Origin: Alphaproteobacteria bacterium
Lineage (GTDB): Bacteria > Pseudomonadota > Alphaproteobacteria > UBA828
Direction of reading: 5' to 3'
DNA: 64,000 nt
Assembly (NCBI GenBank): GCA_965214705.1
Contig: OZ243972.1
Span: 4,000,001 to 4,064,000, forward strand
The position numbers and the translations under genes are program-made. Each line of letters opens with the position of its first letter. Position 1 is the first letter of the stretch. Below the pieces are notes generated by a model. The model saw only the letters and a list, made by a program, of their open reading frames with translations, had not been told where the DNA came from and did not search any database. Shown here piece after piece: positions 3,791 through 38,714 of this stretch.

Positions 3791-5740
3791 GGGAGACGCT
3801 TTGGCCGGATGTGGGCGAGGGCCCTTACATGAACCCGTGCGAGGTGGCTTCCGTGCTGAATGCAGCTCCACCACCTCAGCTGGATCGCCTGCCAGAACCG
3901 CCTGCACCGCCGCCCGCAGCTCCGGGTTCCGCTGGCGCAGGATGTCGTCCATCGCCGCCGTCGTCATCCCCGCCCGCTGCAGCAGCCGGAACGGCTGGCC
4001 CGCTTCCACCGCACGGAGCTGGCTGCTGTCGCCCACCAGCACCACGCGGGACGCGTCGAGCTCGTCCGCCGCCCGCAGCAGAGAGCGCATCTTGTCGGTC
4101 GACACCATCGAGGCCTCGTCCAGCACCAGCACCGCGCCGCCGAAGGTCTCCCTCAACGCCTCCAGCGCCTGTCCGTTGCCACCCGCCGCCCGGCGGCGCG
4201 CCAGGAACCACTGAAGCGTGCGGGCATGAATGCCGGTCTCGCGACCCAGCACCGCGGCCGCGGCAGCCGAGGGCGCGAGTCCGAACACCGGCTTCTCCCC
4301 GGCAAGCGCCCGCACCTGGCGCAGCATGGTCGTCTTGCCGGTCCCGGCCCGGCCCTGCACACCGACGATCCGGTCGTGCGCCAGCAGGATCGTGCGAACT
4401 GCCTCCTCCTGTCCCTCGGTAAGCCCGGCGCCGTCGAGACGGGCGGCCACGTCCCTCTCCCGGGCCAGCGCCGCGCCGGCACCGATCCCGGCCTTCATCA
4501 TGGCGATCGTGGACCGCTCTGCCTTCAGCGCCCGGTCGGTGACGAAGGCCCGGTCGGCGCGCCGCAGCTCGGCTCCGACTAGGTGGCCGTCGCGGACCAG
4601 CCAGGCGACCGCGTCCCGGATTTCACCGAGCGAATGCCGGCCCGGCGAATGGCCGAGAGCAAGCGCCTCGAGATCGTGTTCGGAGAAGACCGATTGCCGT
4701 TCCTCGAGCTGCCGCATGCAGCGGCGCACGATCGCCAGCGCCGACGGGCCCTCCGGCAGCATGATCGCCCGCTCGGAGCGCGCTTCTGCGAGCGCCGTGT
4801 CGAGGCTCAATTCCTGTGCGCGGGCCCGCCATAGCTCCTGCAACTGCGCCCGCACCGGCTCCGCCTTCCGCTTGCGCGTCGCCAGCGTCGCCGTCTGCAT
4901 CGCCGCCGTGCCGCGGTCCCAGCCCTTCTCGTCTACATAGGCCAGTATCTCGTGCCTGCGCGTCGAGAAGGCTCTCCGCAGCTCCCCGCCGTAGCCCGAA
5001 AGCTCAAAGCTCGGCAGCCGGCCCACCATCGCCGGCACGATCGAATAGCCCTTCTCCATCAGCTGCCGCGCCAGCCGGTCGCGATAGTAAGCCCCGATCA
5101 GCCGAGCATTGCGGTGCAGCAGCGTCGGCTCCACGCTCTTCCACCGCCCCTCCCCGTCCCTGGTCATGTTGGCGATCACAGCGTGAGTGTGGAGCTGCGG
5201 ATCGAGGTTGCGGCTTGCGATGTGGCGGAACAGCGCCGCCACCATGCAGGGCGCCTTCACCCGCGGCCGTCTGCCGGTGGCGGGGTCCCAGCCCCGGGTC
5301 TCCAGCAGCGAACCCTCGATCCAGTCGAGCGTCTCGCGCACCGCTGCATTGTGCGCGCGAATGACCATCCGGTCCCCGTGCGGGTGCTCCTCCGTCGGCA
5401 GAAGCGCCGCCAGCGACACTGACTTGGGCGCCGAGAACGTGATGTCGAAGCCCGGACGGTGCTCGTGCTGCCCGTCACGCAGCCGCCCGAGCCGCTGCTT
5501 CGTCCCGATCACGTGGCTCTGTAGAAGCTTCTCGAAGGCGCCCGCCGCGACCGGCTTGCCGGGATGCAATCCCAGGGCAACCGCGCCGCTGCCGTGCCAG
5601 GTGCTCGCGTTCCGGTGCTCTGCCCGCTTGGCCCGAAGGTCCGCCGCGTCCTCGCCCTTCCTCAAATAGTAGCCGCCGTCCTGGCGGAAATACTCCGACG
5701 TGGCGGACGAAGAGGTCAGGTTGCGGACCGTCGCGACCAT
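3749..5740 (-). pseudogene. MOBF (TrwC/TraI-like) relaxase-helicase, C-terminally truncated
   Basis: N-terminal Tyr cluster (EYFRQDGGYY), FDITFSAPKSVS, DPQLHTH (HUH), Walker A GRAGTGKT, LDEASM; the sequence stops resembling a helicase after LRAAVQAVLAGDP (~3860). Confidence 0.88.
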
Positions 5741-22066: not shown

Positions 22067-23439
22067 TTGAACGAAGCCGCGGGCCACGAGAGGCGAAGTT
22101 GAGCTATGTGGAAAGTGCGCTGATGTCAGCGTCAGGCGGCATCCACCGGCAGCAGAGTTGCGCATAAAATCGACGCTCGCGCCGGTCTTTCGGCAGGCAT
22201 GCGGGCGCACGCTGCGAGGACTGAGCGGGGTGTGAGCCGAGGGCTGTCAGCCCGGCTCAAGCGGAGACAGGTTCGGTCGTGCGTCGGCGCTTTGGCGCCG
22301 TTGCGCGGGGCCGAAGCGAGCGGGCGTCTCACGGTTTCCCCCTGTGGGTCGGCGGCAGCGCCGGCGGGCCGCGCGTCGAGCGGGGCTCATGGCGGCGGCG
22401 GATTTCGCGGACGAGGCGCATGACGCCGCCGCAGTGGGGGCAGGCCACGGGCGCGGTGCCGATCTCGGGCTCTTCGTCGGGCTCGGCCTGAGCGCCGTCC
22501 ACGCTTCCCTCGGGGGCGGCGCAGCCGAGGGCGCCGAGAGCCTGGCGTGCTCTCTCCAGCGTGCTGGCGCGGCAGCCGTTGGCGAGGATGCCGAAGTAGC
22601 GAATGCGGTGCATGCCGTCCGGCAGGACGTGCCTCAGGAAGCGGCGGATGAACTCGTCGGCGCTCACGGTGGCGATGCCGTAGCGCGGCTTTCTCTGCCC
22701 CGGCGCCTTGGGCTTTCGGTGGCGGAAGGAGACCGTCTCGCCGTCGAAGGAGACGATGCGGCTGTCGGAGATGGCGATCCTGTGCGTGTAGTGCGAGAGG
22801 TACCGGAAGACCTGCTCAGGCCCGCGGAAGGGCCGCTTGGCGTAGACCACCCAGTCCCTGGCCCGGGCGGCGGCAAGCGTGGCGTGGAACTCGCCGGGAT
22901 TGGCGAGGTGGGCGACGGTGCCGTGGAACTCCAGGTCCCCCCGGCCGTGGGCGCGGGCGAGCTCCTCGAGGAAGAGGCGGCGGAACAGGCTGCCGAGGAC
23001 CTTGACGGGGGCGAGGAAGGTGGTGCTCCCCGTCTTCCACTCGCCACTGTCTACGTCGAAGCCCGCGTTGGGCACGACCACGTGCAGGTGCGGGTGGAAG
23101 CGGAGCTTCTGATCCCAGGTATGGAGGACCGCGGTGCCGCCGATGCGCATGCCGCCGTGGCGGGGATCGGCGGCGATGGTGCGCAGGGTCTCGGCGACGG
23201 CCCGGAAGAGGATGTCGAACACCACCCTGCGGTTGCAGAAGGCAATGGCGGCAACCTCCTTGGGCAGGGTGAAGACCACATGGAAGTAGGGCACCGGCAG
23301 GATGTCCCCGGCGCGCTCCTCGCTCCAGAGGTTGGCGGCGAGACCCTGGCAGGTGGGGCAGTGGCGGTTGCGGCAGGAGTTCTTATGAGCTCTCTCCGCA
23401 AGGCCCGGCTTCATCTACGTCAATGGCATTCGCAATCTC

Positions 23440-23700
23440 TCCACTCGAATCCGCGGCCGATGTCCAGGCAGAACGTCGTTTCCACGCAGCGATCCGCCAC
23501 GCTGCTCAGCTCTTATCCGGTTCGGAACTCCGGCGCTTGCCGGCTCCGTGACCCCAATACCGCATCCAAGCGGTGGTGACGTTCCGGGAGGCGGGACCCA
23601 TCTGTAGAACGGTGCCAAGCGGCGACCCAACTCTTGCCCGGTCACACGCCTTGCCCGGCATCCTCCGCGGCCGCGTCCGACCACGTCGGAACCTCCTGTA
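23440..23700 (-). ncRNA. Candidate seekRNA/bridge RNA of IS1111 copy A
   Basis: RNA-strand GAGTTG and CCGTTCT match the target flanks; GGTAT and ATAAGAG match the circle junction (see findings). Ends are approximate. Confidence 0.65.
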
Positions 23701-23726
23701 TTTTCCCGTTCGTTCGGCCGGTGCCC

Positions 23727-24923
23727 TCAGGAGACGATGGCGCCCTCAGGCACCAGTCCTTGGGTGGCATAGCGCCACAGCGCGATCAGCAGCTTGCGCG
23801 CGACCCCCACGATCGCCCGCTTCCTCGCTCGCCGGTCCCTCCCGCCACCGGCATCCCTGGCGACGTAGGCGTGGAACCACTTCGTGATCGCGCTTTCCGG
23901 TTGCAGCTTCAGCCAGCGCCAAGCCATCTGGATCATGTGCTTCCTGACATGCGAGGGGCCGGCCTTGCTGATGCCAAGATCGTGGTCGACATCTCCGCTC
24001 GCCCACGGCACCGACGTCAACCCGGCCCAGCTGCCCAACTCCCGGCGATTGCGGAAGTCCCGATAGAACACCTCGCCAGCCAGCAGTGTGGCGTCATTGA
24101 GGCCGATGCCATGGATGCGCGTAAGCGCCGCGATCATCGCCGTCCCGTCACGATTGGTCGCGTCCTGGGCTTTCCGGCCAGCCTTCAGCAGGGCCCTCTT
24201 CTCGGCCTCGATCATCTCGATATGCTCCTCAACCAGGCGAAGCATCCCCACCGCCCTCTCAATCTCTGCCCGCGCACGCGGCGGCAACGGCGCCCCATAG
24301 CCCGTCCGCGCGGTCGCGAGGCGTTCGAGGAAGTCCGGCTTGCGCGGCGCCAGATCGAAGATGCCGTGCAACTGCAAGAGCCCTTTGATCCGGTTGTTGA
24401 CGCGGGTACGCTCGCTGATCAGCGTGTCCCTCTCGCGCAGCAGGCGCTTGGCATCCTCCTGGTCCACATCGGGCACGCGCACCCAGGACATGGCCTCCGA
24501 ATCGCCTTGGTCCCATGCCTTCAGAGCCCGAACCATCCTCCTCGCGTCGATACGGTCGGTCTTTTTCTTCTTGGCGCGCCGGTTCACCCGCAGGCTCGCC
24601 GGATCGTTCATGAAGATATCGATCTCCGCGTCACGGCGCTCGATATCGCGGGCAAGCCAGAACCCCTCGTAGCCCGCCTCGTAGGTCAGCATCACCCGAG
24701 GACGGGCGCCGAGCTCCCTCGCCACCCGTTCCCGCACCGACCCGACGAGATCCAACAGTCCCGCCGTGTCGGCAGCAGCCAGTGTGTGGATGCTGATGCT
24801 GCCACCCGAGGCATCCGGGCAATGCACGCCAACGATCCACGATTTGAGGCTGATCTCCACCGCGACATAAATCGTGCTACTACTTGCGCCTGTCAGCGCG
24901 GTCGTGTCTGGACCATCCGACAT
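23727..24923 (-). CDS. IS110-family recombinase (IS1111 subgroup)
   Basis: YVAVEIS, YEAGYEGFWL, KTDRIDA, GLTSVPWASG, ISKAG, ARKL. Confidence 0.92.
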   Translation of the reverse strand: MSDGPDTTALTGASSSTIYVAVEISLKSWIVGVHCPDASGGSISIHTLAAADTAGLLDLVGSVRERVARELGARPRVMLTYEAGYEGFWLARDIERRDAEIDIFMNDPASLRVNRRAKKKKTDRIDARRMVRALKAWDQGDSEAMSWVRVPDVDQEDAKRLLRERDTLISERTRVNNRIKGLLQLHGIFDLAPRKPDFLERLATARTGYGAPLPPRARAEIERAVGMLRLVEEHIEMIEAEKRALLKAGRKAQDATNRDGTAMIAALTRIHGIGLNDATLLAGEVFYRDFRNRRELGSWAGLTSVPWASGDVDHDLGISKAGPSHVRKHMIQMAWRWLKLQPESAITKWFHAYVARDAGGGRDRRARKRAIVGVARKLLIALWRYATQGLVPEGAIVS

Positions 24924-25845
24924 CCGTCCACTCCGTTGTTGACGATTCCGCTCGGAGAGAAGGTGCTGGCCTTCTCTCCGAGCTTGTCTAACCGCCAGAA
25001 TCGATTCGGTGCCACCGTGCTCATGGTATCTGAAGAGCGGAGTGCGCCAGGCGAACTGGTGCGAGTGCAGTTGGTGAAAGTCCAACAGGAAGGAGAAGGT
25101 GAGCCACCACTTCCACCCCGAGTCATGGGCCGTCGCTCGCGAGGGCGAGGGTCAAGCGTTGACAGGGGCGCGTGTGGGCGGGGCTATTGAGCACCGAAAG
25201 AAACATCATCCGGGATGCCGAGGCTCTTTCGTTGGCCGAAGGTCGCATCTGGCCCACCGATATGGCGAGGGGGGTCTGAATCCCGCGGTGTCAGAGAACC
25301 CACGCACGTACGTACGCACTGCACCGGGACCTGGGAGGTCTCCATGTCATCCCGCTGAGTCGTGGCGGGAACGCTGAGGAAAGGAGGAGTCCGTAACCGA
25401 AGATGAACGACATGGAGAAATCAGACTCGGCCATAGTGTGTGCTGGGCAGCGCCCAGATCAGGTGGGTTCAAGTCCCACTGGCGCTCGGGTAAGGGGCGC
25501 CATATCCAAAAGTGGGGGTAATTCCTCACTGGCCGGAGTGAGCCGATAAGCGAAACTCTAAACGGGCACGAAGCCGGAAACGGCGGAGACAGCCAAGGGA
25601 GGAGCTAAGTTGGTCCACTGTCGAAAGACAACCGGAAGGCAGGGTGTCCACCGCGAGGTGGAATCTGAAGGGCTTGCGGAGAAGTACCGGGCCGTAATCG
25701 AGGGGGCCACCCCATGATGAATCGGTCGGCCAAAGACGGGGCAAGGTCGAGCCGGCACTATGGCGGCGAAGGCGTTCTTACCCACCCGTCGCACCAAGGT
25801 GTTTGCGAGCGGCACGGTACGGAAGATCTGGACGTGACCCCAGGA

Positions 25846-27532
25846 GGGTGTGATTCTCGTATGGCGATATGCCAGTCGTGATGGCGCTAAAGGATATGGG
25901 CTGGTTCATTTTGGTCAAGCAGCGAGTGCCAGGACTTCGGTTGGGCTGATGTTGTCGTTAGCTGGTCCGGATCGGGCGTCCATGAGCGCATCCCATGCCC
26001 GGTCGAAGAGGCCGGATTTGATCAGGGCGCGGAAGGTCAGAACCGCCTGCCCGCCGTCGATCCGCCAGCGCATGCCCGAGCGTTTCAAGCGCTGCGCGAC
26101 GAGGGTCTTGCAGGCCGCCTCGACCACACCCGAGCCGATGGCGATGCCCTCTTCCTTCAGGGCGTGGTAGCGCATCCGATGGCGGTGCTTTCGGAAGAAG
26201 GCCAGTTCGCGCTCGATCTCGGCCGGGTCCCCCTTTGCCCTGTCCAGGAGGTAGCGCAGTGCCCGGATCACCTTGTCGACGCCGCGGGGGTCGTGGCGCA
26301 GGATTTCGCGGTGCTTCTCGAACCAGTGGCGCGCCACCGCATGGTCAGAGGCCACGCGGAGATGCTCGCAAGCGTGCCAGAAGTCGATGACCTCGGTCTC
26401 GGGCGAGAGGCTTTCGAGGAAGGTCCAGTTGTCGGCGGCCCCGTCGGCGACGGCGCCGATCCTGATCTTCGGGCTCACACGGCGGATATGGGCGACCTCG
26501 CTTGCAAGTTGCGCTTTCAGCGCGGCCTTGCCGCTCTCGGGCATACGGCCGAGATAGAGGGTCTTCAGCCGTTGGCCCTCGGCGTCGTGGAAGGAGACCG
26601 TGCCGCAAGAGGCCTCGCGCCAGCACGCCTCGGCACGGCCGTCCTCGCCGGCCCGCAGCGCCACCATGACGCCGTCAAGGGAGACGGACGCGGTGACCGC
26701 ATCGGGCGGTATGCCCTGGGTTTCACGGATGCTGGCCAGCGTCTCCGGGGCGACGCTCTCCCAGTGCTCATGCATGCTCAGGGCCAGGCGCTGCAGCGTG
26801 CTCACCGACGGCGTCATTCCGCCCATTTTCGCGAAGAACTCCTCCGCTTCACGCGGCGTACAGTGGCCCATCATCATCAGCCCGAGCTGCGCCGCCGGCC
26901 GCGTCAGGTAGTCGTCGATGAGGCCCAGGCTCTCGTCCACCGGCACCAGCGACGTGCTGCTCGCGCCGCTGCGATAGCGCGCACGCCGATAGGTCACGGG
27001 ACCGAGCGTCGTCATGATCGTCTTCGGCGTCGCCGCCACCCGGACCCAGCTCTGTCCGTCGCGCTCGATCCGGCTCGCACCGTCGTCGCGGCTCTCGGCG
27101 AAGGCCCCAAGGAGCTTGCAACCCAAGCCGTTCATGGCGTCCCGCAGCCCCGTCTCAACCGTTTCGAACGTCTCGGCAGACGGGTCAGACCCAGCCTGTT
27201 CGCGACAGAACTCCACCACCTGGGCGACCGCTTCGGCGACTTCGGCAGGCAGGCCCAAAAGGTCGATGGACGAGGCGATGAGAGACTGCGACACTGGCAT
27301 GGGAACGCTCCTGATGTTGGGTCTGATGTTGGGTTGTCGGCGCGGCATCCTACCGCATCTCGCGGTGCGGAGCGTTCCCACCCACCACTGCTGGATGCCG
27401 CCGTTGTGACAAAATCCGGCCCTGCACCGGCCGATTGTCACGAAAACCCGATTCTGGCTGCCTACGGCCACCCGCCAATCGCGCTAAATCAATGACTTAC
27501 GATCGCCATGCCAGACCTCCAGACCTACACCC
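25846..27532 (-). mobile_element. ISKra4-family element inside the inner intron RNA
   Basis: Ends GGGTGT / ACACCC; 8-bp TSD CCCCAGGA (25838-25845, 27533-27540). Confidence 0.88.
25915..27300 (-). CDS. ISKra4-family transposase
   Basis: SLDG, ADGAADNW, DFWHACEHL, IGSGVVEAACK..RLKRSGMRW. Confidence 0.88.
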   Translation of the reverse strand: MPVSQSLIASSIDLLGLPAEVAEAVAQVVEFCREQAGSDPSAETFETVETGLRDAMNGLGCKLLGAFAESRDDGASRIERDGQSWVRVAATPKTIMTTLGPVTYRRARYRSGASSTSLVPVDESLGLIDDYLTRPAAQLGLMMMGHCTPREAEEFFAKMGGMTPSVSTLQRLALSMHEHWESVAPETLASIRETQGIPPDAVTASVSLDGVMVALRAGEDGRAEACWREASCGTVSFHDAEGQRLKTLYLGRMPESGKAALKAQLASEVAHIRRVSPKIRIGAVADGAADNWTFLESLSPETEVIDFWHACEHLRVASDHAVARHWFEKHREILRHDPRGVDKVIRALRYLLDRAKGDPAEIERELAFFRKHRHRMRYHALKEEGIAIGSGVVEAACKTLVAQRLKRSGMRWRIDGGQAVLTFRALIKSGLFDRAWDALMDARSGPANDNISPTEVLALAA

Positions 27533-27611
27533 CCCCAGGAGGGCTCGCCGCGTTCCCGGGTGGCACCGGGATAACGGACCCTATAAGCCGAAAGGCGAAA
27601 TGGGAAGGGGA

Positions 27612-27794
27612 TTATATATCTGACTGAATGACGGGCTGATCCATGATGCCGGATGGCTCCGCCTCAGCCTCCCCGTCTTCGGCCTGTGGCTCGTGCCGCA
27701 ACAGCGCGCGGGCCACCATTTCAGGAGTCGCCCCCTCGTAGCGGGGGTTGAGCGTCTCCAACTCGTGTTTCAGCTTTTCAGCCTTCTCGGTCAT
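27612..27794 (-). CDS. 60-aa conserved IS1595-associated microprotein
   Basis: PRYEGATPEMVARALLR resembles the ORF at 58686-58847; stop codon lies inside the IR. Confidence 0.65.
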   Translation of the reverse strand: MTEKAEKLKHELETLNPRYEGATPEMVARALLRHEPQAEDGEAEAEPSGIMDQPVIQSDI

Positions 27795-28210
27795 TGCGTT
27801 GCCTTCATTCCCGGTGGCGAGGGGGGGGCGATACTATATTGCATATTATCGCCCCCTCTGTCACCATGCCCGCGCTCACATCTGAGAAGCCCGCTTCGTC
27901 GGGCTACTCGCTGAATACAACAGCCCTTGTGTGGCTCGGGGTCGCTCCCCGGACCGGCGAATAGGCGGGACCTTCCAACGCTTCTTGGATGTGAGCAAAC
28001 GGCCCGGCACCCCGTCGGGCCGCGAGCAGAGGGCAGGCTACGCTATAAGAGATCGCCCCATCGGCTGGGGACGGGTGGTGCCCCGTCCCCAGCCTACCAC
28101 GGGGCTTGGTGTTGGCTTCGGAGAGCGCACCAAACCGCACGGCAATGACAGTCTATTACCGATCCCAAGCCGTACAAGAGGTGCCTCTCCGACGATTTTA
28201 GGAGAGCGCT

Positions 28211-28582
28211 ATGCACACTTGGTATGCCTCTTTGGCGGCAGCGGCCATGATGCTCGCCGCTGTCGCCACCACTCACGCGCGGGCAGATATCGTATGCCCA
28301 AAGGGCAGCCTGCACGACTTCGTTCCAAACGCGGTCTGGCAACAGTACGTCGCCAACAGCCGGGACTATATCGCTCGGATGCTCCGAAGGATGGAGGATG
28401 TCCGAGACCGCCAGATGGTCATGGAGCGGATGTTCGAGGAGGGCTTCATCGCCGCCACGGACATCGTGAACGCTCACTGCGTCTCGCGGCCGATTGGCGA
28501 GCCATGGAGCACAGAGATCAAGCAGAAGCGGCGCGAGGCTTGGTGCCGAGAATGGGGTGATGCCTATTTCTGCAAGAGGTGA
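28211..28582 (+). CDS. Hypothetical secreted protein (passenger)
   Basis: RBS AGGAG, Ala-rich signal peptide ending THARA, four Cys; overlaps the next gene (GTGA). Confidence 0.65.
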   Translation: MHTWYASLAAAAMMLAAVATTHARADIVCPKGSLHDFVPNAVWQQYVANSRDYIARMLRRMEDVRDRQMVMERMFEEGFIAATDIVNAHCVSRPIGEPWSTEIKQKRREAWCREWGDAYFCKR

Positions 28583-29361
28583 TCGCAAGAATCACCGTGC
28601 TTCCGATCTACGTCATCAACCTCGACCGCAGGCCGGATCGGCTCGCGGCAATCGCGGCGGACCTGGACCGGCTCGGCCTACCCTTCGAGCGCATCAAGGC
28701 CGTCGACGGCCAAGAGCTACAGGAAGATCTGGGCCCGGAGCCGCTTCTGAACCTGGCTGAGAAAGCGTGCGTGCTGAGCCATGCGAACGCGCTGCGGCAC
28801 CTCCTCCATTCAGAACACCCAGCGGCCGTGATCCTCGAGGATGACGCTGAGTTCGGAGAGGGGCTTGCGCAACTCTCCCGCTCGATCGACTGGTGGCCGG
28901 AAGGCACCTTGCTGCTGAAGCTGGACCAACCGTTCCCGAGAAAGCGGCTCGTCGGCCTGCCGTGTGGACGAACGCCGGACGGCCGCAACCTGAGAGAGAA
29001 CATCCGGTGGAGCTCAGGGTCGGTGGGCTACATCGCTACTCGCGCCGCTGCCGGCGAGATACTGGTGTCCCTCGAGACAGACAGCATCATGCCCTTCGAC
29101 GAACTGATGTTCGACTGCCGCATATCAGACCTAGCGCGCTGGCTCCGTGCAATGCAAGTCCAGCCCGCGCCTGTCCGGCAACGGGACCGCGGGAGACCGG
29201 ATGAATTCCCCTCGGATTTGGAGGACAGCCGCCAGACACCGGAGTCATTGAGTTATCGCCACCGCCGTCGACAGCGGCGCCGATTTCACCGTCGTCTGTA
29301 TCTCTGGATGTTGTGGGCAATCGGCAATGCGAAGAGCATGAAGATCACCTACTGCCCGTAA
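28579..29361 (+). CDS. Glycosyltransferase family 25 (LPS/LOS-type)
   Basis: YVINLDRRPDR, FERIKAVDG, ACVLSH, ILEDDA. Confidence 0.9.
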   Translation: MIARITVLPIYVINLDRRPDRLAAIAADLDRLGLPFERIKAVDGQELQEDLGPEPLLNLAEKACVLSHANALRHLLHSEHPAAVILEDDAEFGEGLAQLSRSIDWWPEGTLLLKLDQPFPRKRLVGLPCGRTPDGRNLRENIRWSSGSVGYIATRAAAGEILVSLETDSIMPFDELMFDCRISDLARWLRAMQVQPAPVRQRDRGRPDEFPSDLEDSRQTPESLSYRHRRRQRRRFHRRLYLWMLWAIGNAKSMKITYCP

Positions 29362-29601
29362 TCGCAGATTCAAACTGACCCACTACCCGCGATTGACGAC
29401 TGACCGGGTTTAGGCTATCCGCGGGCTCGTGGCCGTGACGAATCGCGGTGGCCTCGACTGACGAAGCCGGCCCTGGCGGGACCGGCTTCGGAACTGGGGT
29501 CCGGTGTAGACCTACCGAGGCGCACCGAACTGGCTCATCTGAGGTGGAAATCCTAGCGATTCCCGCGAGCCGGTCAAGTGCGCCCTCAAGAAGAGGGCAC
29601 A

Positions 29602-29826
29602 ATGCCGAAGAAATATCCGACCGGCTTCGATCTCAGCAAACGCTCATCCCGTTCTCGCAAATCGCGGAAGCCCGACCAACCTTCGATCAAGTATGGTGAT
29701 GTTGTCCGGCAGCGCCCGAATGGGCTGCCACTGCAAGTCACCGATGTGGAGGGCGATAAGGTCTACTGCGACGGGTTCATTGACCCGTTCGGGGCATCCG
29801 GCCTTGAAGTTGTGATCCGCTTCTAG
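29602..29826 (+). CDS. Small hypothetical protein (YodC/DUF2158-like fold possible)
   Basis: IKYGDVVRQRPNGLPLQVTDVEGDKVYC pattern; RBS AAGAGG. Confidence 0.5.
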   Translation: MPKKYPTGFDLSKRSSRSRKSRKPDQPSIKYGDVVRQRPNGLPLQVTDVEGDKVYCDGFIDPFGASGLEVVIRF

Positions 29827-31044
29827 TGTCCTGTCATTCATCAACTGTCGGATAGAGGCGTTTCAGCTTCACCCGTGCGTCGTCCGTGGTGAACTGCCAG
29901 TTGACGTTGCCCCGGATGCGGTCTCGGGACGCCTGCCAAGCCGCGACCTCGTCGCGCAGGACTTCGAGGGAGGCGATGCGGCGGTTGAGACACTGACGGA
30001 TCATGACGTTGAGCTCGACCTCGGCGACGTTGAGCCAACTGCCGTGCTTGGGCGTGTAGACGAACTCGAAGCGGTCCCACAGCGCCTTGGCCTGGTCCGG
30101 CGGAAATGCCTCGTAGAGGGCGCCGGGGCGGTGGGTGTTCAGGTTGTCCATCACAAGCGTGATCCTCTTGGCGCGGGGGTGGCGCTCGGCGATGTCGTTG
30201 AGGAAGTGCGCCCAGTCGGTTTTGGTTCTGCGCGCCGTCACCTTGGTCATACGCCGCCCGGCCAGGGGTTCGGTCGCCATGAACACGTTGCAGCTTCCGC
30301 AACGTCGGTACTCGTAGTCTTCGCGCGCCGGCCGACCCGGCGCTGCCGGAACCGGTTCGCGTGTCTCGCCGATCAGTTGCCGGGGCGTCTCGTCCATGCA
30401 CACCACCGGAAAGGCTGCATCGTAGGGACGCCGGTAGACGTCGAGAACCTTCTCCATCGCCGCGGCGAAGTCCGCGTTGCCCTGTGGGGGAATCACCCAG
30501 CCGACGCGCCGCCACGGCTTGATTGCGTTTTTTTTAGCACCCGGCGCACCGTCTCGTGCGACACGCTGTCGATGTGGCCGAGTTCCACGATGCGGTCCGC
30601 CAGCAACCGCAGCGACCACTGCGAGTGGCCCTCCGGCGGCTCGGCGCAGCTCAGCGCCACCAAGTGCGCCTCGAACTCGCCGTCGGCCTTGCGCACGTAG
30701 CTGGGACGGCGACCCTGCCGGCCACCGAGCGCCGCCGCCATGCCCGCCTCGACGAAACGCTTCTTGACCCGCTCCACCTTGCGCGCACTGATGCGCAGGA
30801 TCTCCGCAATGGCCTCCCCGTGCGCCCGGTGCTCGTTGAACTCGCCTTCGTCGCAGTTGAGCAGGATCAGCGCGTTGATCACCTTCTGTGACTGATGAGA
30901 GCCCTTGCGCGTGATCTCTGCGAGCTCGTCCCGCTCCTCCTTCTCCAAAGTCACCACGTAACGCTTCATGCCAGCCTCCTCGCCGTCGTGCGACGACGAG
31001 AAAGCTATCATGAAATGGGCGACATATCGTATGTGACATGACAC
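29826..31044 (-). mobile_element. IS630-family element inside the IS1595
   Basis: IR GTGTCCTGTCA / TGACATGACAC; TA duplication within CTAG. Confidence 0.92.
29834..30969 (-). CDS. IS630 transposase, programmed -1 frameshift
   Basis: orfA MKRYVVTL...VSHETVRRVLKK; A8 run at 30528-30535; orfB CMDETP, MDNLNTH, TPKHGSWLNVAE. Confidence 0.9.
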
Positions 31045-32020
31045 TAGGACCGCGCGCCTGAGTCCAGTCCGTTGTCGGCGATCAGGTCACGGTAGCACAG
31101 GCGCTTGCCGATCATCCCGGCGACCACCGCGCCCATCTGGTCGATGGTGTCGCTCTCGCGCACGTTGTGGCGGCCCGCGAACTCTTGGACGTACCGTTGC
31201 AGGTGCTTCGCGCTCAGCTTGTGGTAGACGCCCTTGTGCGCCCGCTTGAGCATGGACCAAAACGACTCCATGCCATTGACGTGGGCTTGGTTGCGGACAT
31301 ACTCGCCAGCACTGTGGTTCACGGCCTCGCGGTCGAACTCGCCTTCCAGCGGGTTGTAGGCTGCGCTTTCGTCCGTATAGACCTTCGCGCCCGGCTCGGT
31401 CTTCTCTGCGACGAAGCCCGCGACATGCGGGGCATCCGTGTTCTGAATGTGCCGCACCGCGACGCGGTTGGTGGCGCGGTCCTTGGTGCCGACCACGGCC
31501 TCTTTGCCGACTGCACCGCGCCCGCTCAGCGTCTTCCGCTTGGCCTTCGACATGTTCGCGCGCCGCCCACCCACGTATGTCTCATCGGCCTCGACCGGCC
31601 CCGAGAATAGCGATTCGCTCTCGGCGGACCAAGCCTCCCTGATCCGATGCAGCATGAACCAAGCGGTCTTCTGCGTCACCCGCAGGTCGCGATGCAGCTT
31701 CATCGACGACACGCCCTTGAGGCTGGTCATCTCCAGGTAGATGGCGAAAACCCACTTGCGCAGCGGAACCTTGGAGCGCTCCAAGGCCGTGCCGATCCGC
31801 ACCGAGAAGGCCCGCTTGCAGGCCGGGCAGTAGTAGGGCAGGCCGGACGTGGCGGACGCTTCCGCAGTCTCGGTGCATCCGCAGCGCGGGCAATGGCGAC
31901 CATCCGGCCAGACCAGAGACTCGAACCACGTGGCGGCGGAAGCCTCGTCCGGGAACATCTCGGTCAACTCGATCAGGCTGATTCCCTCGCGGTGCGCTTT
32001 GCCCGGTGCCTTCTTCGCCA
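31044..32020 (-). CDS. IS1595-family transposase
   Basis: CPRC/CPAC zinc ribbon, AWFMLHRIR, VEADETYVGG, YTDE, HVNGMESFW. Confidence 0.94.
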
Positions 32021-32249
32021 TCGCCCTAACCCCTTGTGCTAACGTCTTGATCTGAATATAGGGGTTCACGACCGTTCAGTCAGGTATATAATCCCCAATG
32101 GGAAAGGATGCGCGGCGAGCAATCGGACAACCGAATAGTACCTGAAGCCCGGCGAAAGCCGGGTGACCGCGCGAGCGGCGGCCGTGTGGGCCGGGGAAGG
32201 CGGTTGGCAGAGGTGGTCGGCGAGAGACAGCGATGAGTGAGTAAGGACC

Positions 32250-33560
32250 ATGACGCGGACAAGTTCCTTGAGCGAAAGACCCGGACATCATGGCCCGAGG
32301 AGACTCATCGACTGGATCAACCCGGCGGGTGACAGGAAGGTCCACTCACTGGTGGACAAGGTGTACAAGCGGAAGAACCTTGAGGTGGCCTGGGAAAAGG
32401 TGAAGCGCAACCGGGGTGCCGGTGGCGTGGACGGAGAGGATTTAGCGGCGTTCGAGGCATCGCTGGATGCAAATCTCGATCGCCTGCACCGGGAGTTGCG
32501 GGACGGTGAGTATCACCCGCAGCCGGTTCTCCAATGCCTGATCCCCAAGGCGGGCCAGCCGGGGAAGTTCCGCCCGCTCGGCATCCCGACAATCTACGAC
32601 CGGGTGTGCCAGCAGGCGCTGCTGAACCGGCTGGAACCGATCTTCGAGCCGGTGTTCGACGATGCCAACTACGGGTACCGGCAAGGAAGGTCTGCCCATG
32701 GAGCGTTACGCAAGATATGGAGGGAACTGGACGAGGGCAACGAGTGGGTTCTCGATGCGGATTTGAAAGACTTTTTCGGGTCCGTGGACCACGAAAAGCT
32801 CCTCGAACTCGTCAACCAGCGAGTCTCGGATGGCCGGGTATTAGGTCTGCTCAGGCAGATGCTCACGGCCGGGGTGGTGGCCGACGGTAAGAGGCTGCCG
32901 ACCGAACAGGGCACTCCGCAGGGCGGCATCGTTTCACCGCTGCTCAGCAATATCTTGCTGACCCCGTTCGATTGGGAAATGCGTCGTCGCGGCTATCGAC
33001 TAACGCGATACGCCGATGATTGGCTGATCACGTGCCGCACACGCGGGGAAGCCCGCGCAGCACTGGAGACGGCCAGGCGGATTCTGGCAAAGCTGGGTGT
33101 GTCCCTCAACGCCGGGAAGACCCGCATTGTCCATGTCAGGCACGGGTTTGAGTTCCTCGGCTACAAGATCAAGCAGGGCGAGCGGCCTCTCCGGCTGTCG
33201 TCCTCCAAGATCAAGAGCGGGGTTCGCGGGGGAGCGCGCTACGCGGTTCCGCGTGAGAAATCCATCCGGCACTTCAAGGACCAGATTCGCCAGCGTACCC
33301 GGCGCAAGGCTCCTGTCAGCACGCAGGAGCTGATTGACGAGATCAACCCGATCATTCGGGGATGGGGCCAATACTATTGCAAGGCCCACGTCCGCGGGCT
33401 CTTCCACCAGCTTGACGGCTGGATCGTGCGGCGGCTCTGGTCGCATCGTCGCAAGCGCTGGCGCAACGCTGGCTGGAAACAGTTGCCGGAGCGCAAGCTG
33501 ATCGACGAATACGGGCTTGTTCGCCTGATCTCACTGGTTCCGTCCTTGAACCTTCGTTGA
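32250..33560 (+). CDS. ltrA: Group II intron reverse transcriptase/maturase (inner intron), intact, no endonuclease domain
   Basis: RPLGIPTIYDRVCQ, GTPQGGIVSPLLSN, RYADD, FLGY, maturase X domain (NPIIRGWGQYY). Confidence 0.95.
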   Translation: MTRTSSLSERPGHHGPRRLIDWINPAGDRKVHSLVDKVYKRKNLEVAWEKVKRNRGAGGVDGEDLAAFEASLDANLDRLHRELRDGEYHPQPVLQCLIPKAGQPGKFRPLGIPTIYDRVCQQALLNRLEPIFEPVFDDANYGYRQGRSAHGALRKIWRELDEGNEWVLDADLKDFFGSVDHEKLLELVNQRVSDGRVLGLLRQMLTAGVVADGKRLPTEQGTPQGGIVSPLLSNILLTPFDWEMRRRGYRLTRYADDWLITCRTRGEARAALETARRILAKLGVSLNAGKTRIVHVRHGFEFLGYKIKQGERPLRLSSSKIKSGVRGGARYAVPREKSIRHFKDQIRQRTRRKAPVSTQELIDEINPIIRGWGQYYCKAHVRGLFHQLDGWIVRRLWSHRRKRWRNAGWKQLPERKLIDEYGLVRLISLVPSLNLR

Positions 33561-33822
33561 GACACCTTTGTGAAAGCGGCTTACGGGAAAACCGTACGGG
33601 CCGTTTGAGCGGCGGACGGAGGCTAGCCTCGCGGGGCGCCTCCTCCGACCCGACAGCGATGAAGCCGGCGAACAATGGGGCACCTGCCCCGGCGGAGCCG
33701 GTGGAGCCAAGGGCCGAGCCCAAGGGGAATCTGGAAGGCCAAAGCACGCGCCGGACGCAGGACCGGGAGAGCGTGTCACAAGCGGCTGACCGGATACGGC
33801 AGTTTGTACAAAGGGAACCTGG

Positions 33823-35852
33823 CCCATCTGGGATTATGGCACTACGTTTGTGCGCTCATCGCGACACTCCCGGGAGCACCGCCCGGCGCCTGTGGGGATC
33901 CACCGTGAGGCCCGCCGCCTGCGCGATGACGCGCGCCTCGGCGTCGGGTTGAGCATCCTGGCGGATGACGATGCGGTTTCCGTCCACCTCCCGGATGGTG
34001 GAGGTGAGACGCACCCAGCCCGCGAGCTTGTCGCGGATCGTACTCCAGCGGTCATGCAAGCCGTGCGCCGCCAGACGGGTTCGCAGCAGATGAACCGCGT
34101 GGTAGGCGAGGACGGCGATGAACAGGTGGGCGGCGATGCGCGAGGTCTTGGAGTGCCAGACCGGGCGCAGGCCGATTTCGGATTTCAGGCTGCGGAAGGT
34201 GGCCTCGAGCTCTGTGAGCTTCCAGTAGGTTCGGACCACGGTTTCAAGATCCCACTCGACGTGGCTGGTGCGCAGCACATAGATGCCCGCTTGGCGGTCG
34301 CGCTCGGCATGGAGAGCGTTGCGCCTCCAGCGGACCGCACTGGCCCGCCCCTTCTCTCCGGGCTCGACCTCGATGTCGTACTGACGGTGGACGCGCCTGT
34401 ACCTTTCCTTCAGCCGGCCCAGCTTCTCCATCACCTTGGTGAACTGCTTGATGTGGTTCTTCTTCGACAGCCCGCCATGCAGGGCGCGCAGGGCGTCCTC
34501 GAAGTTGTGACGCTGACGGGCGAGCACGGCCTCGTCCTTCTGCTGGCGCTCATGGCTCCAGACGCACAGGTGCGCTTCGTCGTCCCCTGCCGCGAGACGC
34601 CAGGCGCGGGCATCGTGGCCGGCCCGGGTTTCGAAGGCGGCATCGGCTTCGCGCCCGGGCGGCGCCGAGACGCCGCGGCGAACGGTGATCCAGTGATAGC
34701 CGCCCGCCCGCAGCCAGGCGAGGTTGGCCTCGGTGGAGATGCCGGCGTCCATGATGACCGTGGGCCTGGGGGCGTTGCTGCCGCGCGCTTGGCATTCCAG
34801 CCGCCCGATGGCGTCGGCGAGAGTGGCCGGCTCGGAGATGTTGCCGGGCAGGATCTCGCTGTGCTGCGGAAAGCCGGCCTGGTTCAGCGACAGGGCCAGG
34901 GTCACGATCGGACAATCGTCACGCCTCTGCTTCGAGCGCCCGAAGCGGGCCAGCGCGGAGCTGGGCCGTCCGGTCATATGGGTGTTGGTCAGGTCGAAGA
35001 AGACGATGGTGTCGGGGATGCCGAAGAGATCGCGCTCCCGGGCGCACAGCGCCTCTTCAAGCGCCGCGCGGTGACGCCACAAGAGGTCGCCGATGCGGTA
35101 GAGCTTGCTGAGCGTGAGCGACTTGCCGCTGTCGACATCGAGCAACTCCAGGGTCGCGCTGTTCGCGCTCAGCCAGCGGAAGGCCTCGCGCTCGCTGGAG
35201 GGATGGATCATGCGCGCGACCACCAGTGCCGCCGCGATGCGTGCGTCGCGCTCACTTGCGCCCAGCCTCTCCAGCGTCTCGATGAAGCGAAGGTCGTCAA
35301 GCGCGGCGAGAGCCAGGCGCTCGCAGCCCACCGAGCGGACCTGTTCGTGGGAGAGGCTATCGAGACGGACCGTGGCCAGGTCGCTCTCGTCCCCGGGCCG
35401 CGACGCGCCGAGATCGCGGGCGTGAAGCCGCCGTACGACGTCCTCGGCGACGGGGCGCAAGGCGGCATCCGGCTCCAGCAGCGGCTCGCTGCCGGCGAGA
35501 AGGGTTTCGATCAGAAGCGCCAATTCGCGCCATTGCTCCTCGGGCACACCGAAGTCGGCGCCGAGATTGAGGAGCGTGACCTGGCGCACCCTTCCGCCGA
35601 TGCGTTCGCTGCGCACGAGGCGGTAGGTGGCATAGCGCTCGCCACCGTCTCCGCGACCGGTGAGGGTTTTGCGAATGAACATGGCGGCAGGGTCACGGAC
35701 AGTTTGCGGACTGTCAAGGAGCGCCGGCCCACAGACCAAAGATTATGGCACTACAATGGACTTCCCAAAACACAATCCAACAAAATCAGTGCCTTAGATC
35801 CCAAAGGCTACCCAAAATCAGGCCTTCGGGACCGAAAAGTGGCAAAGATGGG
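33823..35852 (-). mobile_element. IS1634-family element, copy 2 (lacks 66 bp at the transposase-distal end)
   Basis: Matches 11995-14024; TSD CTGG (33819-33822, 35853-35856). Confidence 0.92.
33856..35682 (-). CDS. IS1634 transposase (same protein as 12028-13854)
   Basis: Identical translation in the ORF track. Confidence 0.92.
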   Translation of the reverse strand: MFIRKTLTGRGDGGERYATYRLVRSERIGGRVRQVTLLNLGADFGVPEEQWRELALLIETLLAGSEPLLEPDAALRPVAEDVVRRLHARDLGASRPGDESDLATVRLDSLSHEQVRSVGCERLALAALDDLRFIETLERLGASERDARIAAALVVARMIHPSSEREAFRWLSANSATLELLDVDSGKSLTLSKLYRIGDLLWRHRAALEEALCARERDLFGIPDTIVFFDLTNTHMTGRPSSALARFGRSKQRRDDCPIVTLALSLNQAGFPQHSEILPGNISEPATLADAIGRLECQARGSNAPRPTVIMDAGISTEANLAWLRAGGYHWITVRRGVSAPPGREADAAFETRAGHDARAWRLAAGDDEAHLCVWSHERQQKDEAVLARQRHNFEDALRALHGGLSKKNHIKQFTKVMEKLGRLKERYRRVHRQYDIEVEPGEKGRASAVRWRRNALHAERDRQAGIYVLRTSHVEWDLETVVRTYWKLTELEATFRSLKSEIGLRPVWHSKTSRIAAHLFIAVLAYHAVHLLRTRLAAHGLHDRWSTIRDKLAGWVRLTSTIREVDGNRIVIRQDAQPDAEARVIAQAAGLTVDPHRRRAVLPGVSR

Positions 35853-37394
35853 CTGGGGTGCGTCTCACGACGCTCCTCCATCACGTCACGGTCGCTGCGC
35901 TGCGCTGGGCGTTCTTCGAGTTGAAGAAGGACGCTGCGGCGGGTGTCGATGGCCTGACGTGGCGGATGTACAAGGAAGGGCTGGAAGGCCGTCTCGCCGA
36001 CCTGCACGACCGAGTGCACTCGGGGGCGTACCGGGCGACGCCATCACGGCGGGTGAACATCCCGAAGCCGGATGGCGGCACACGACCGCTCGGCGTCGCG
36101 GCCATAGAGGACAAGATCGTCCAGAAGGCTGTGGCGGAGATAATCCTGACGCCGATCTACGAGGCGGAGTTTCTGGGGTTTAGCTACGGGTTCCGACCCG
36201 AGCGTGGGGCGCACAATGCGCTCGATGCGCTGGCGGTCGGGATCGAAAGGCGCAAGATCAACTGGATAGTGGACTGTGACATCCGCAAGTTTTTCGACAC
36301 GGTTTCGAGGGACTGGCTGGTCCGGTTTCTAGAGCACCGGATAGGGGACAGGCGGGTTATCAGGCTGATTATCAAGTGGTTGAACGCTGGCGTCATGGAA
36401 GCTGGAGAGTGGCGTGACGACCTGCGGGGAACTCCGCAGGGTTCGGTGATTTCGCCGATCTTGGCGAACGTTTATCTGCACTACGTCCTCGATCTTTGGT
36501 TCCAGAAGAAGTGGCGCAGCCACGAGGTCAACGGCGACTCGATCATCGTTCGCTACGCCGACGACTCTGTGGTGGGTTTTCAGCACGAGCAGGACGCGGA
36601 GTGCTTTCTGGAGGCCGTAAAGGAGCGGCTCGGACGCTTCGACCTGGAACTGCATCCCGACAAGACCCGGCTCATCGAGTTCGGGCGGCACGCCATAGAG
36701 CGCCGCCAAGGCCGAGGGCAGGGTAGACCGGAGACCTTCGATTTTCTGGGCTTCACACACTACTGCGCGAAGACCAGACGGGGGTACTTCATGCTGGGGC
36801 GCAGGCCGATGGCGAAGAGGATGGCCCGCACCCTGAAGCGGATCAAAGAGGTGCTACGCAGGCGGATGCATGACAACATCGAGGATACGGCCAGGTGGCT
36901 GGGCAAAGTGGTGGACGGATGGCTGAACTACTATGCCGTCCCGACCAGCAGCCGGTACTTACAACGCTTCCTCGTCCGCCTAAAGCGGGTGTGGCTCGCC
37001 ATTATACGCCGCAGATCGCAAAAGGACCGATTTACATGGGCCGACATCGACAAACTTAAAGCTCGACACTGGCCCAAGCTGAGAATCCGACACCCGTGGC
37101 CGGATCAACGACTAGCCGTCAGTTCGACCTGAGGGAGGAGCCGGATGCCTTAGCGGGCACGTCCGGATCTGCGCGGGGGGAGCGGGGCAACCCGCTTCCC
37201 TACCGCGATTGCTCGCGCCCGCAGCCCTCGCAGGCGTACATGTGGCCGCCGAGCACGGCGGTGCGGCACGCCTCGATGGCGCCCATGACCTTGAGCCGGG
37301 CGGCGTCGATGCGCCCTTTGTGGCGCTCACGGAAAGCGGCGCCGGCGCGGCGGAAGATCTCCGCCACGCCCGCGCGTTCGGCCTCCACGCGCCG

Positions 37395-38273
37395 TCAGTT
37401 GCGCAACGCTGCGAAGCCTGAGATCGGGTGGTCGAGGCCCTCGAACATCTTGCCGGTGACGCGGGCGTAGTGACGGGTCGTGTTCGCGCTTCGATGGCCG
37501 AGCATGTCCCGGATCACCTCGATATCGCCGCCGCGCTCGAGGAGATGGGTCGCCGCCGAATGGCGCAGGCAATGGAAGGTGTAGCTGCGGTCGAGCTCGG
37601 CAATGTCGCGCGCCCTCCTGAAGGCGGCCTGCAAGGTCTCCGTTGCGATGGGCCTGTCGAGCGAGACGCCGTAGAAGAGCCAGCTCGTCGGACGCGGCCA
37701 GATGTTCCTGTAGTAGACGCGCAAGTAGTGGATGACGATGTCCGGCAACGGTGCCATTCTCTCGGTGCCGCCTTTGCCGGAGGGGATGTGCAGCAGCTTC
37801 TTCTCCGACAGGATGTCGCCGACCTTGATGGCCAAGGTCTCGGAGATGCGGAGCCCGCCGCCATAGCCGGTGACAATGGCAGCACGGTGGCGGAGGTCGG
37901 GTGTCGCAAGGATGAGGTGCTCGACCTCCTGCTCCGACATGTAGCGCGGCAGCTTGCCGGGCTTCTTGCGGGAGCGCAGGCCGGCGACATGGTCAGGCCA
38001 GCCGAGTGTGTCGATGTAGAGGAAGTTCAGCGCGGCGAAGGAGACGTTGGTCGTGCCCGGACTGAGCCCCTTGTCGATCCGCCCCAGGTACCACTGGCGC
38101 ACCTGCTCGGCGTCGAGCTCGTCCGGCGAGGCGTCGTAGTACCTGGCCAGGTTCTTGATCTCGCAGATGTAGGCCTTGGACGTGCTCGCGGCCAGATTGG
38201 CGATGCGGAGCTGCTCCTCCATGCGCTGGCGAAGAGGGGTGACGGTGTTCGTGTCGCACGCGGTCCCGGTCAT
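37395..38273 (-). CDS. Tyrosine recombinase of the IS91 element (copy A)
   Basis: N-terminal SAM-like LRQRMEEQL; GLRISE, GKGG, HCLRHS, LGH, Y. Confidence 0.93.
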   Translation of the reverse strand: MTGTACDTNTVTPLRQRMEEQLRIANLAASTSKAYICEIKNLARYYDASPDELDAEQVRQWYLGRIDKGLSPGTTNVSFAALNFLYIDTLGWPDHVAGLRSRKKPGKLPRYMSEQEVEHLILATPDLRHRAAIVTGYGGGLRISETLAIKVGDILSEKKLLHIPSGKGGTERMAPLPDIVIHYLRVYYRNIWPRPTSWLFYGVSLDRPIATETLQAAFRRARDIAELDRSYTFHCLRHSAATHLLERGGDIEVIRDMLGHRSANTTRHYARVTGKMFEGLDHPISGFAALRN

Positions 38274-38714
38274 TATCGATCTCCCTGGATCGCGACGGCG
38301 CGCCGCCGGACCGATCCGGCGACGGTCCGTCGCAGGGGTCGATGCTAACCACTGGTGATCGGGAGGCTGCTGGGGATCCGCCACCCGACGGGCGGAGCGC
38401 CACTGACGCAACCGGGAAGCGAACGCACAGAACAAACGGCACCCGCGACGCCTCGGAAATGAATGAACTCTACGCCGCTAACTCCGCGTAGCGGCTTCGT
38501 TCAAGAGCCGCCGGCCCCATGGCGCATGAGCGAGGCCTGCCGTCGTCGGCTCTCCGGCCCGCAACGGTTGGACGGAGAAATCTTGGTTGGCATTACGGTG
38601 TTCTGCCTTGGTGCCGGCACGCCGGCGTGCTGCCCGACCGTTCCAGGCACGTGATCGGAGACCGGCAGCACGGCGACTTCCAAGTCCAGAAAGACCACCG
38701 CGCTCAAGGAGGCG

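Follow-up and report, generated by a model that had tools for sequence, protein, structure and literature searches.

What guides a group II intron into the catalytic core of another group II intron, and how wide a range of hosts can such a guide reach? The question is raised by a 64,000-nt stretch of an alphaproteobacterial genome (Alphaproteobacteria bacterium, UBA828; assembly GCA_965214705.1, contig OZ243972.1, positions 4,000,001 to 4,064,000 of the forward strand), hereafter called the window, in which an inner group II intron, I2 (25438..33654), interrupts domain III of an outer intron, I1 (25042..37209), at CCATAGT|A. A preliminary description of the window, made from its letters, had proposed that the inner element is an intron specialised on other introns. 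We consider it very probable that I2 is a copy of an endonuclease-less mobile group II lineage that homes into a conserved domain III loop (...C-R-U-A-G-U|A...) of other introns. Sequence comparison establishes the points on which this reading rests, namely the boundaries of the element, its structural target, repeated independent insertions on the sense strand, covariation of exon-binding sites 1 and 3 (EBS1 and EBS3) with their targets, and a protein that lacks an endonuclease.

Boundaries of the Inner Intron and Its Position Within Domain III

The 5′ junction of I2 reads ...TCAGACTCGGCCATAGT|GTGTGCTGGG (in a shorter form, ...ATCAGACTCGGCCATAGT|GTGTGCTGGG) at 25437|25438, and the 3′ junction reads ...CCGACCCGAC|AGCGATGAAG at 33654|33655. 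Empty copies of two sister host lineages continue uninterrupted through the site, as ...TTCGGCCATAGT|AGCGATGAAG and ...TTCGCCCATAGT|AGCAATGAAG, and the boundaries of I2 are therefore exact. When I2 is removed, a continuous outer intron is restored, as in the unoccupied sisters (CCATAGT|AGCGATGAAG and CCATAGT|AGCAATGAAG), and the restored site folds as a covarying domain III that agrees, in hosts resembling class IIC introns, with the consensus of Rfam family RF01998. The insertion point and the complementarity of ACTATGG to CCATAGT had both been noticed earlier, and both were recovered here: the hairpin GCCG-GCACTATGG-CGGC occupies 25751-25767, and the ACTATGG within it (25757-25763) is an exact complement of CCATAGT at 25431-25437. 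The interval 25438-33654 had also been taken to be one inner intron. Its outer limits stand, but it is not a single intron, since two further insertions lie within its 8,217 nt.

The consensus of domain III in RF01998 is GcC / AUAGUA / stem / GAAG / GgC. An occupied host aligns to this family exactly up to AUAGU, and an unoccupied neighbor aligns throughout. For hosts of the RF02005 type, we aligned 18 reconstructed or empty sites and scored covariation over 14 distinct rows. A 7-bp helix encloses the junction in these hosts, with 10 to 14 standard pairs per position and up to four pair types, and the loop beyond it has CAUAGU|A facing (G/C)AAGG. The RF01998 consensus and the covarying helix together show that ATAGTA, where domain III starts, is a conserved motif, as had previously been stated from general knowledge. 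Intron-binding site 1 (IBS1) of the host, CCATAGT at 25431..25437 on the plus strand, comprises the last part of the basal helix of domain III together with the internal loop's 5′ strand. Judged from these alignments, the insertion cuts the 5′ strand of the internal loop at AUAGU|A.

Copies of I2 in the Same Genome Occupy Different Host Introns

The genome to which the window belongs (7.9 Mb in three contigs) contains 21 5′ ends of I2, which are ~100% identical and whose flanks share the consensus ...C(A/G)TAGT|A. Seventeen of them lie within group II intron sequence and represent at least eight distinct host lineages. A copy was counted as intronic when it had, on its own strand, an RF02005 match 120-241 nt upstream (in one case of only 32.6 bits) or when another reverse transcriptase (RT) gene and a domain V lay downstream. 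Host type A carries five copies and has no unoccupied representative. Type B has two copies and two unoccupied representatives, a close variant included, while type C has three copies, a further rearranged copy recognized by its type C 3′ flank, and two unoccupied representatives. Two copies are found in type E and one in each of types D, F, G, and H. Where host proteins could be compared with that of I2, they matched it by only ~35-45%.

The heptamer and the following base, CCATAGT|A, occur at 31 sites in the genome. Fifteen are in intron domain III, and 11 of these are occupied, as against none of the 16 sites located elsewhere. This difference in occupancy may be indicative of further determinants upstream of IBS1; alternatively, selection may remove insertions at other sites.

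Relatives in Other Phyla Adjoin Introns of Several Structural Classes

With the I2 protein as query, we recovered 63 loci whose identity to it is 50-93%. They represent more than 10 phyla and are annotated as Nitrospirota, Pseudomonadota, Thermodesulfobacteriota, Gemmatimonadota, Entotheonella, Acidobacteriota, Chloroflexota, Planctomycetota, Ignavibacteriota, and others. We were able to place the exact 5′ junction in 36 loci. In 25 of these, a match to host domains I to IV (D1-D4) at gathering score lay on the same strand and ended 90-280 nt upstream; the upstream flanks of L041, L050, and L042 (<170 nt) were too short for this test. The matches belonged to RF02005 (12 loci), RF02001 with or without RF01998 (7 loci), RF02003 (4 loci), and RF01999 (2 loci), that is, to four host types comprising five Rfam families. 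A host domain V was present downstream in L042, L073, and L075, and L063 was positioned after domain V of an RF02001-type intron. The preliminary description had left its proposal to stand or fall on whether homologs share the domain III position or mostly occupy targets other than introns. The proposal is upheld by the 25 relatives with exact junctions that adjoin a host match, as well as by the 17 intronic copies in the genome.

A phylogeny of the intron-encoded proteins had been suggested as a further check. We constructed a maximum-likelihood tree from 26 proteins and the protein of the outer intron, excluding eight rows with stop codons. Host family was not clustered on this tree, requiring 14 changes compared with a mean of 15.4 after shuffling of the labels, and a value as low was obtained in 37 of 200 shuffles. 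Two near-identical inner-intron proteins from one genome, L045 and L046, have hosts of RF02005 and RF02003, respectively. L059 and L063, both of which have been retargeted, group with support as sisters and branch within the clade.

The proteins of L041-L055, L070, and L071 are 85-93% identical and derive from metagenome-assembled genomes of Nitrospirales, Alphaproteobacteria, Thermodesulfobacteriota, Longimicrobiales, Entotheonella, and Paracoccaceae. RNA data were available as assembled contigs from RNA libraries rather than as raw reads, and those of sponge and coral libraries contain I2-like pieces at 90-99% identity. Such protein identity across taxa, together with the near-identical RNA pieces from sponges and corals, suggests a recent horizontal spread of the inner intron. 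One RNA contig (X2, 25401-25540) spans the 5′ junction between host and I2, and two X3 contigs link 25437 to the domain III of a relative without I2; the latter may represent unoccupied hosts in other organisms.

Some of the relatives are themselves parts of more complex nests. In L080 (4761-7516), an I2-like intron has the D1 of an RF01999-type intron (4836-4952) within its protein gene, so that invasion between intron families goes both ways. L094 (1-2666) is a triple nest in which the 3′ end of one I2-like intron abuts the domain III of a second, and an RF02005-type intron (238-456) is located between that domain III and the protein gene of the host.

Target Recognition and Possible Self-Avoidance

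EBS1 of I2 is ACTATGG, at nt 320-326 of the intron (25757..25763, plus strand), and lies in domain I, in the loop of a hairpin; this loop aligns to a hairpin loop of RF02001 in a weak match (21.4 bits, under the cut-off). Single-sequence folding of this hairpin was uninformative (z = -0.28). EBS1 pairs with the last seven bases of the host at all seven positions here. The same is true of 24 of 35 relatives, and at least six pairs are formed in 33 of 35. Where the guide differs, the target differs in a compensatory manner, as seen in ACCATGG/CCATGGT (L070 and L071), ACTTTGG/CCAAAGT (L055), and the retargeted pairs ACCATGC/GCATGGT (L059) and CCACCGT/ACGGTGG (L063). The complementarity first seen at this one locus is thus beyond chance. 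On a Longimicrobiales contig that includes both L044 and L055, the guide and site sets ACTATGG-CCATAGT and ACTTTGG-CCAAAGT coexist in one genome, and an unoccupied CCAAAGT|A host is present at L044:6019-6101.

A second contact is predicted at I2 nt 365 (25802..25802, plus strand), where a T can pair with the first base of the 3′ exon (A, 33655). We regard this base as the candidate EBS3 because the corresponding pair is Watson-Crick in 30 of 30 relatives and changes jointly with the exon base in L059 (C-G) and L063 (A-T). An AGUCRG-like stretch upstream was considered as a further contact and set aside, as its spacing is variable and it may only mirror the host's own J2/3.

The domain III motif of I2 itself had been described as a variant, and we located it, AATAGTACC, at 32134..32142 on the plus strand; its GAATAGT forms five of seven pairs with I2's own EBS1. 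Across the family, the own domain III site (mostly GAATAGT) forms a mean of 4.6 of seven pairs with the own EBS1, whereas sites in use form 6.7 (n = 27), and the own site equals or exceeds the real target in only one of 27 members. No breakpoint was found at I2's own domain III site among the 21 copies in the genome. These counts fit the earlier idea that a mismatch protects the intron from inserting into itself. However, such protection would not be absolute, since in L094 the 3′ end of one family member lies within the homologous domain III site of another.

Anatomy of I2 and Decay of the Copy in the Window

I2 is a group II intron, with a GTGTG 5′ end, domains V and VI with a bulged A, a protein with RT and maturase domains, and EBS1-IBS1 pairing. 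An intact copy, such as that at C3:371266-373289, is 2,024 nt long, and the copy in the window is in three pieces, all on the plus strand. The first (25438..25848) corresponds to nt 1-411, includes the 5′ GTGTG and domain I, and is 100% identical to intact copies. The second (27533..27606) corresponds to nt 401-474, and the third (32097..33654) to nt 467-2024, with domains II/III, domain IV containing the protein gene, and domains V and VI. The protein gene (32250..33560, plus strand) encodes 436 aa with Pfam matches to RVT_1 (3e-40) and GIIM (2e-19). The protein ends 25 aa past GIIM without an endonuclease domain, and its nearest solved structures are RTs of class IIC (the GsI-IIC RT 6ar1, 219 bits; 7uim, 217 bits). 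Domain V (33574-33606) and domain VI (33611-33650) together occupy 33574..33650 on the plus strand and fold with z = -3.19. Domain V has 33 nt with an AGC triad at its start and a 2-nt bulge, and the bulged branch A of domain VI is at 33648, the seventh base from the 3′ end. RF00029 was not among the matches to intact I2 at E<=1; in ten relatives (L060, L065, L076, L078, L083, L088, L061, L064, L087, and L100), the own domains V and VI score above the cut-off of this family.

The first interruption (25849..27532, minus strand) is a 1,684-bp insertion sequence (IS) with an 11-bp target duplication and a transposase open reading frame (ORF) at 25915-27471 (Pfam UPF0236), and 25 near-full-length copies of it are present in the genome. 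The second (27607..32096), delimited by comparison with intact I2, is an IS1595-like insertion of 4,490 bp that has inverted ends and is associated with a duplication of 8 bp. Within it are an IS630-type DDE_3 ORF (29834-31039), an ORF for an IS1595 transposase (31044-32069), and an ORF at 28579-29361 for a family 25 glycosyltransferase, a passenger of the insertion that splits I2. Because these two IS-type insertions cut I2 and a third cuts I1, the twintron in the window is a dead relic in which neither intron is expected to splice.

The Outer Intron and the Surrounding Mobile Elements

I1 is a plus-strand group II intron of host type A (25042..37209) with a GTGCG 5′ end and an RF02005 match at 25077-25300 (172 bits). 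It occupies GAAGAGCGGA|TGCTCGCGCC, close to the end of a repeat present in many copies; an uninterrupted copy of this repeat shows the empty site and also places the 3′ end of I1 at 37209. Without its three insertions, I1 measures 1,917 nt, a length taken from a sister copy. Downstream of I2 it resumes on the plus strand at 33655..33822, completing domain III (A|GCGATGAAG...CCAAGGGCCGAG) and entering domain IV. The third insertion (33823..35852, minus strand), recognized by comparison with the sister copy at C3:1613715-1615235, is an IS with a 4-bp duplication and a 627-aa ORF (33856-35739) that had no Pfam match; it splits the protein frame of I1. The 3′ part of I1 (35853..37209, plus strand) comprises the protein gene (35858-37132, with RVT_1 and GIIM) and domains V-VI (37136-37209), the latter scoring 36.1 bits against RF00029, under the cut-off of 40.

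The protein frame of the host is open from an ATG at 33659, 5 nt past the I2 site. In RF02005-type hosts, the frame from this ATG runs through domain III for 479 codons (window 33659 onward; C3:1613716-1615155), and an N-terminal peptide is common to host types A and C; other hosts lack the start codon. A start of the host protein inside domain III, which would allow the protein still to be made from an occupied copy, was considered and dropped, as the start codon is not conserved among hosts.

The region around the twintron is a heap of nested mobile elements. The 3′ exon of I1 opens a stretch of ~1.3 kb (window 37210-38504) that is present in ~100 copies at 100% identity in the genome and encodes a tyrosine-recombinase on the minus strand (37395-38435), and I1 is placed 10 nt inside the apparent end of this element. 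Directly upstream (22329-25085) are transposase ORFs of the IS91-type Y2 kind (22329-23414) and of the IS110 family (23727-25085).

Discussion

In the mechanism that we propose, the excised intron RNA, together with its RT/maturase, would reverse-splice into the sense strand of host intron DNA, DNA being the target that the literature on mobile introns suggests. The site would be found through 7 bp between EBS1 and the last seven host bases and a single EBS3 pair with the A that follows. Priming by nascent strands at replication forks has been described for endonuclease-less introns (PMC4424553), and synthesis of the cDNA would presumably be primed in this way here also. Conservation of the motif across intron classes would let the lineage invade very different introns and cross phyla with or among them. 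A host ribozyme with 2 kb inserted in its domain III should fold only after I2 has spliced out. Ordered splicing, the inner intron before the outer, is what we infer from where I2 is inserted and from what PMC4424553 says of twintrons in general.

Several observations weigh against a lineage aimed at the domain III of introns. Four of the 21 copies in the genome are outside recognizable introns: a hydantoinase-like ORF contains one in antisense orientation, unknown sequences that are paralogous to each other contain two, and the last is in sequence of unknown nature. Among relatives, no host match was adjacent to L053, L057, L084, or L101, and the site of L059 looks non-intronic. A further, ORF-less host type with TCGTAGT|A is empty in all five of its copies. 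For EBS2 and IBS2, no consistent complement was found when L059 and L063 were compared with their kin, nor when upstream exons of host and ectopic sites were compared. The best Rfam D1-D4 match of intact I2, to RF02001 at 21.4 bits, is below the cut-off of 32. The occupation of all five type A hosts is also compatible with movement of the twintron as a composite, and neither splicing nor mobility was seen in the assembled contigs of the RNA libraries. The ORF-less introns with the empty TCGTAGT|A site are of the RF02005 type and ~650 nt long (for example G000 C1:1859880-1861186 and C1:421596-422231), and two of them are in tandem, 671 nt apart.

Given the ectopic copies, one may ask whether the lineage has any preference for introns, or whether it inserts at any 8-nt match to CRTAGT|A and only copies at harmless sites, such as those in other introns, survive selection. 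EBS1 and EBS3 are the only contacts that can be demonstrated, and the four ectopic insertions in the genome and that of L059 show that other locations are indeed used. However, perfect sites outside introns are never occupied (0 of 16, compared with 11 of 15 within them), whereas the ectopic sites in use have weaker IBS1 matches. Upstream of one of these, 11 nt (GAAGTCGTAGC) are the same as in host type E, which hints at recognition upstream of IBS1, and in more than 10 phyla the site in use is the same one. We therefore consider an absence of intron preference improbable. The sense-strand orientation of the insertions bears on a different alternative, in which the target is the RNA of the host intron, transcribed or excised, and insertions made by reverse splicing are fixed through reverse transcription and recombination. 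Host introns are transcribed and their RNAs are abundant, and all insertions are on the host's sense strand, although the DNA route predicts the same orientation. The site would be poorly accessible within a helix-flanked loop of a folded ribozyme, and retrohoming into DNA is the established route of mobile group II introns (PMC4424553), so that an RNA target appears very improbable.

The remaining alternative is that a single ancestral twintron spread as a composite, with inner and outer introns merely co-inherited. Composite mobility was raised as a possibility by Mohr et al. (2010; PMC2882425), and in type A all five hosts are occupied, in at least three different outer exon contexts. The type A twintron copies are all identical, which suits composite and separate movement alike. 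Other observations oppose co-inheritance: identical I2 copies are found in widely differing hosts, relatives have hosts from five Rfam families, types B and C include both occupied and empty copies, and host labels are unclustered on the tree of inner proteins, with L045 and L046 in RF02005 and RF02003 hosts. Co-inheritance as the sole explanation is already contradicted by these data, and we give it scarcely any credence. Repeated homing of I2 into the domain III loop of other introns is the reading that we retain, and it is compared below with systems that have been described.

The closest published parallel is in Thermosynechococcus elongatus, where ORF-less TeI3 'F3' introns are located inside TeI4 'F1' introns, in domain IV, after the first ATG of the ORF and before the second (Mohr, Ghanem and Lambowitz 2010, PMC2882425). 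As here, identical inner introns occupy one conserved site in diverged host introns, an arrangement that PMC2882425 reads as recent proliferative independent insertions. The same inner intron is likewise at the same site in diverged hosts in our data, in at least eight lineages within the genome and five Rfam families among relatives. The two systems also resemble each other, as far as the published account of T. elongatus goes, in that a start codon usable for the host protein follows closely on the insertion (here, the ATG 5 nt past the site). They differ in that the T. elongatus insertions, as described, are in domain IV of close relatives in one genome, and the inner introns have no ORF and borrow the protein of the host. 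I2 has its own protein, and its target is not domain IV or the ORF of close relatives but the domain III loop, in unrelated host classes spanning five Rfam families and more than 10 phyla. In Methanosarcina acetivorans, introns reportedly home into the ORFs of related introns, to go by the title of a study by Dai and Zimmerly in 2003. The target of I2 differs from that case, as known from its title, in being a non-coding motif of the catalytic core common to unrelated classes. The nested arrays of M. acetivorans arose by homing into other introns, as recounted in PMC4424553 and PMC2882425, and they resemble our system in their repeated, site-specific intron-into-intron homing, which provides a perpetual site costless to host genes (PMC4424553, PMC2882425).

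I2 resembles class IIC introns in its endonuclease-less protein, its nearest RT structures, its weak similarity to RF02001, and the finding of EBS1 and EBS3 without EBS2. IBS1 of class IIC introns is very short, and their domain V triad differs from AGC. I2 differs from them in its 7-nt EBS1/IBS1 pairing, its sequence-defined site in domain III, and a domain V that starts with AGC. According to PMC4424553, class IIC introns insert after terminator or attC hairpins. Despite its IIC-like RT, we did not assign I2 to class IIC, as it reaches no Rfam family at the cut-off and its insertions do not follow a hairpin with a short IBS1. The twintrons of Euglena chloroplasts (PMC4424553) and Trichodesmium (PMC4649490) are alike in having an intron within an intron and an expected inner-first order of splicing. 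As portrayed in those sources, they are fixed, mostly immobile, and located in genes, whereas the I2 lineage is mobile, with many recent insertions into mobile introns.

Other group II introns are the most common neighbors of group II introns (Waldern et al. 2020, PMC7306698). Intron-into-intron homing as such is already known, and the domain III target is broader and more fundamental than those of the published cases compared here, as these are set out in the sources cited. No lineage directed at the domain III loop, or with hosts across several structural classes, was found in the portions of the full-text literature that were searched (including PMC2882425, PMC4424553, PMC7306698, PMC3552965, PMC3245105, PMC4028801, PMC8919778, PMC12584367, and PMC8643678), and an earlier description may exist, for example in supplementary tables. 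Twintrons and other multi-copy intron sequences accounted for 21 of 513 that were missed in one survey (PMC4028801). Both the lineage and its hosts are probably under-counted, because standard pipelines, as represented in PMC4028801, discard nested introns.

A stronger form of our reading is that the lineage is a cross-phylum generalist hyperparasite that exploits a near-universal AUAGU|A loop in at least four host types and five Rfam families, carries in its own domain III a variant of the motif that lessens self-targeting, and makes the activity of its hosts conditional on its own excision, with a target and breadth apparently not described before. We judge the chances of this stronger form to be evenly balanced. 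If it is true, parasitism among selfish RNAs would be layered and general, with a guide tuned to an unavoidable feature of a ribozyme class and not to one relative. The inner intron would also constitute a natural switch, on whose presence and removal the activity of the host intron should hinge. In addition, the variants of EBS1 and EBS3, L059 and L063 included, would provide a natural retargeting set from which the target rules of endonuclease-less introns may be learned.

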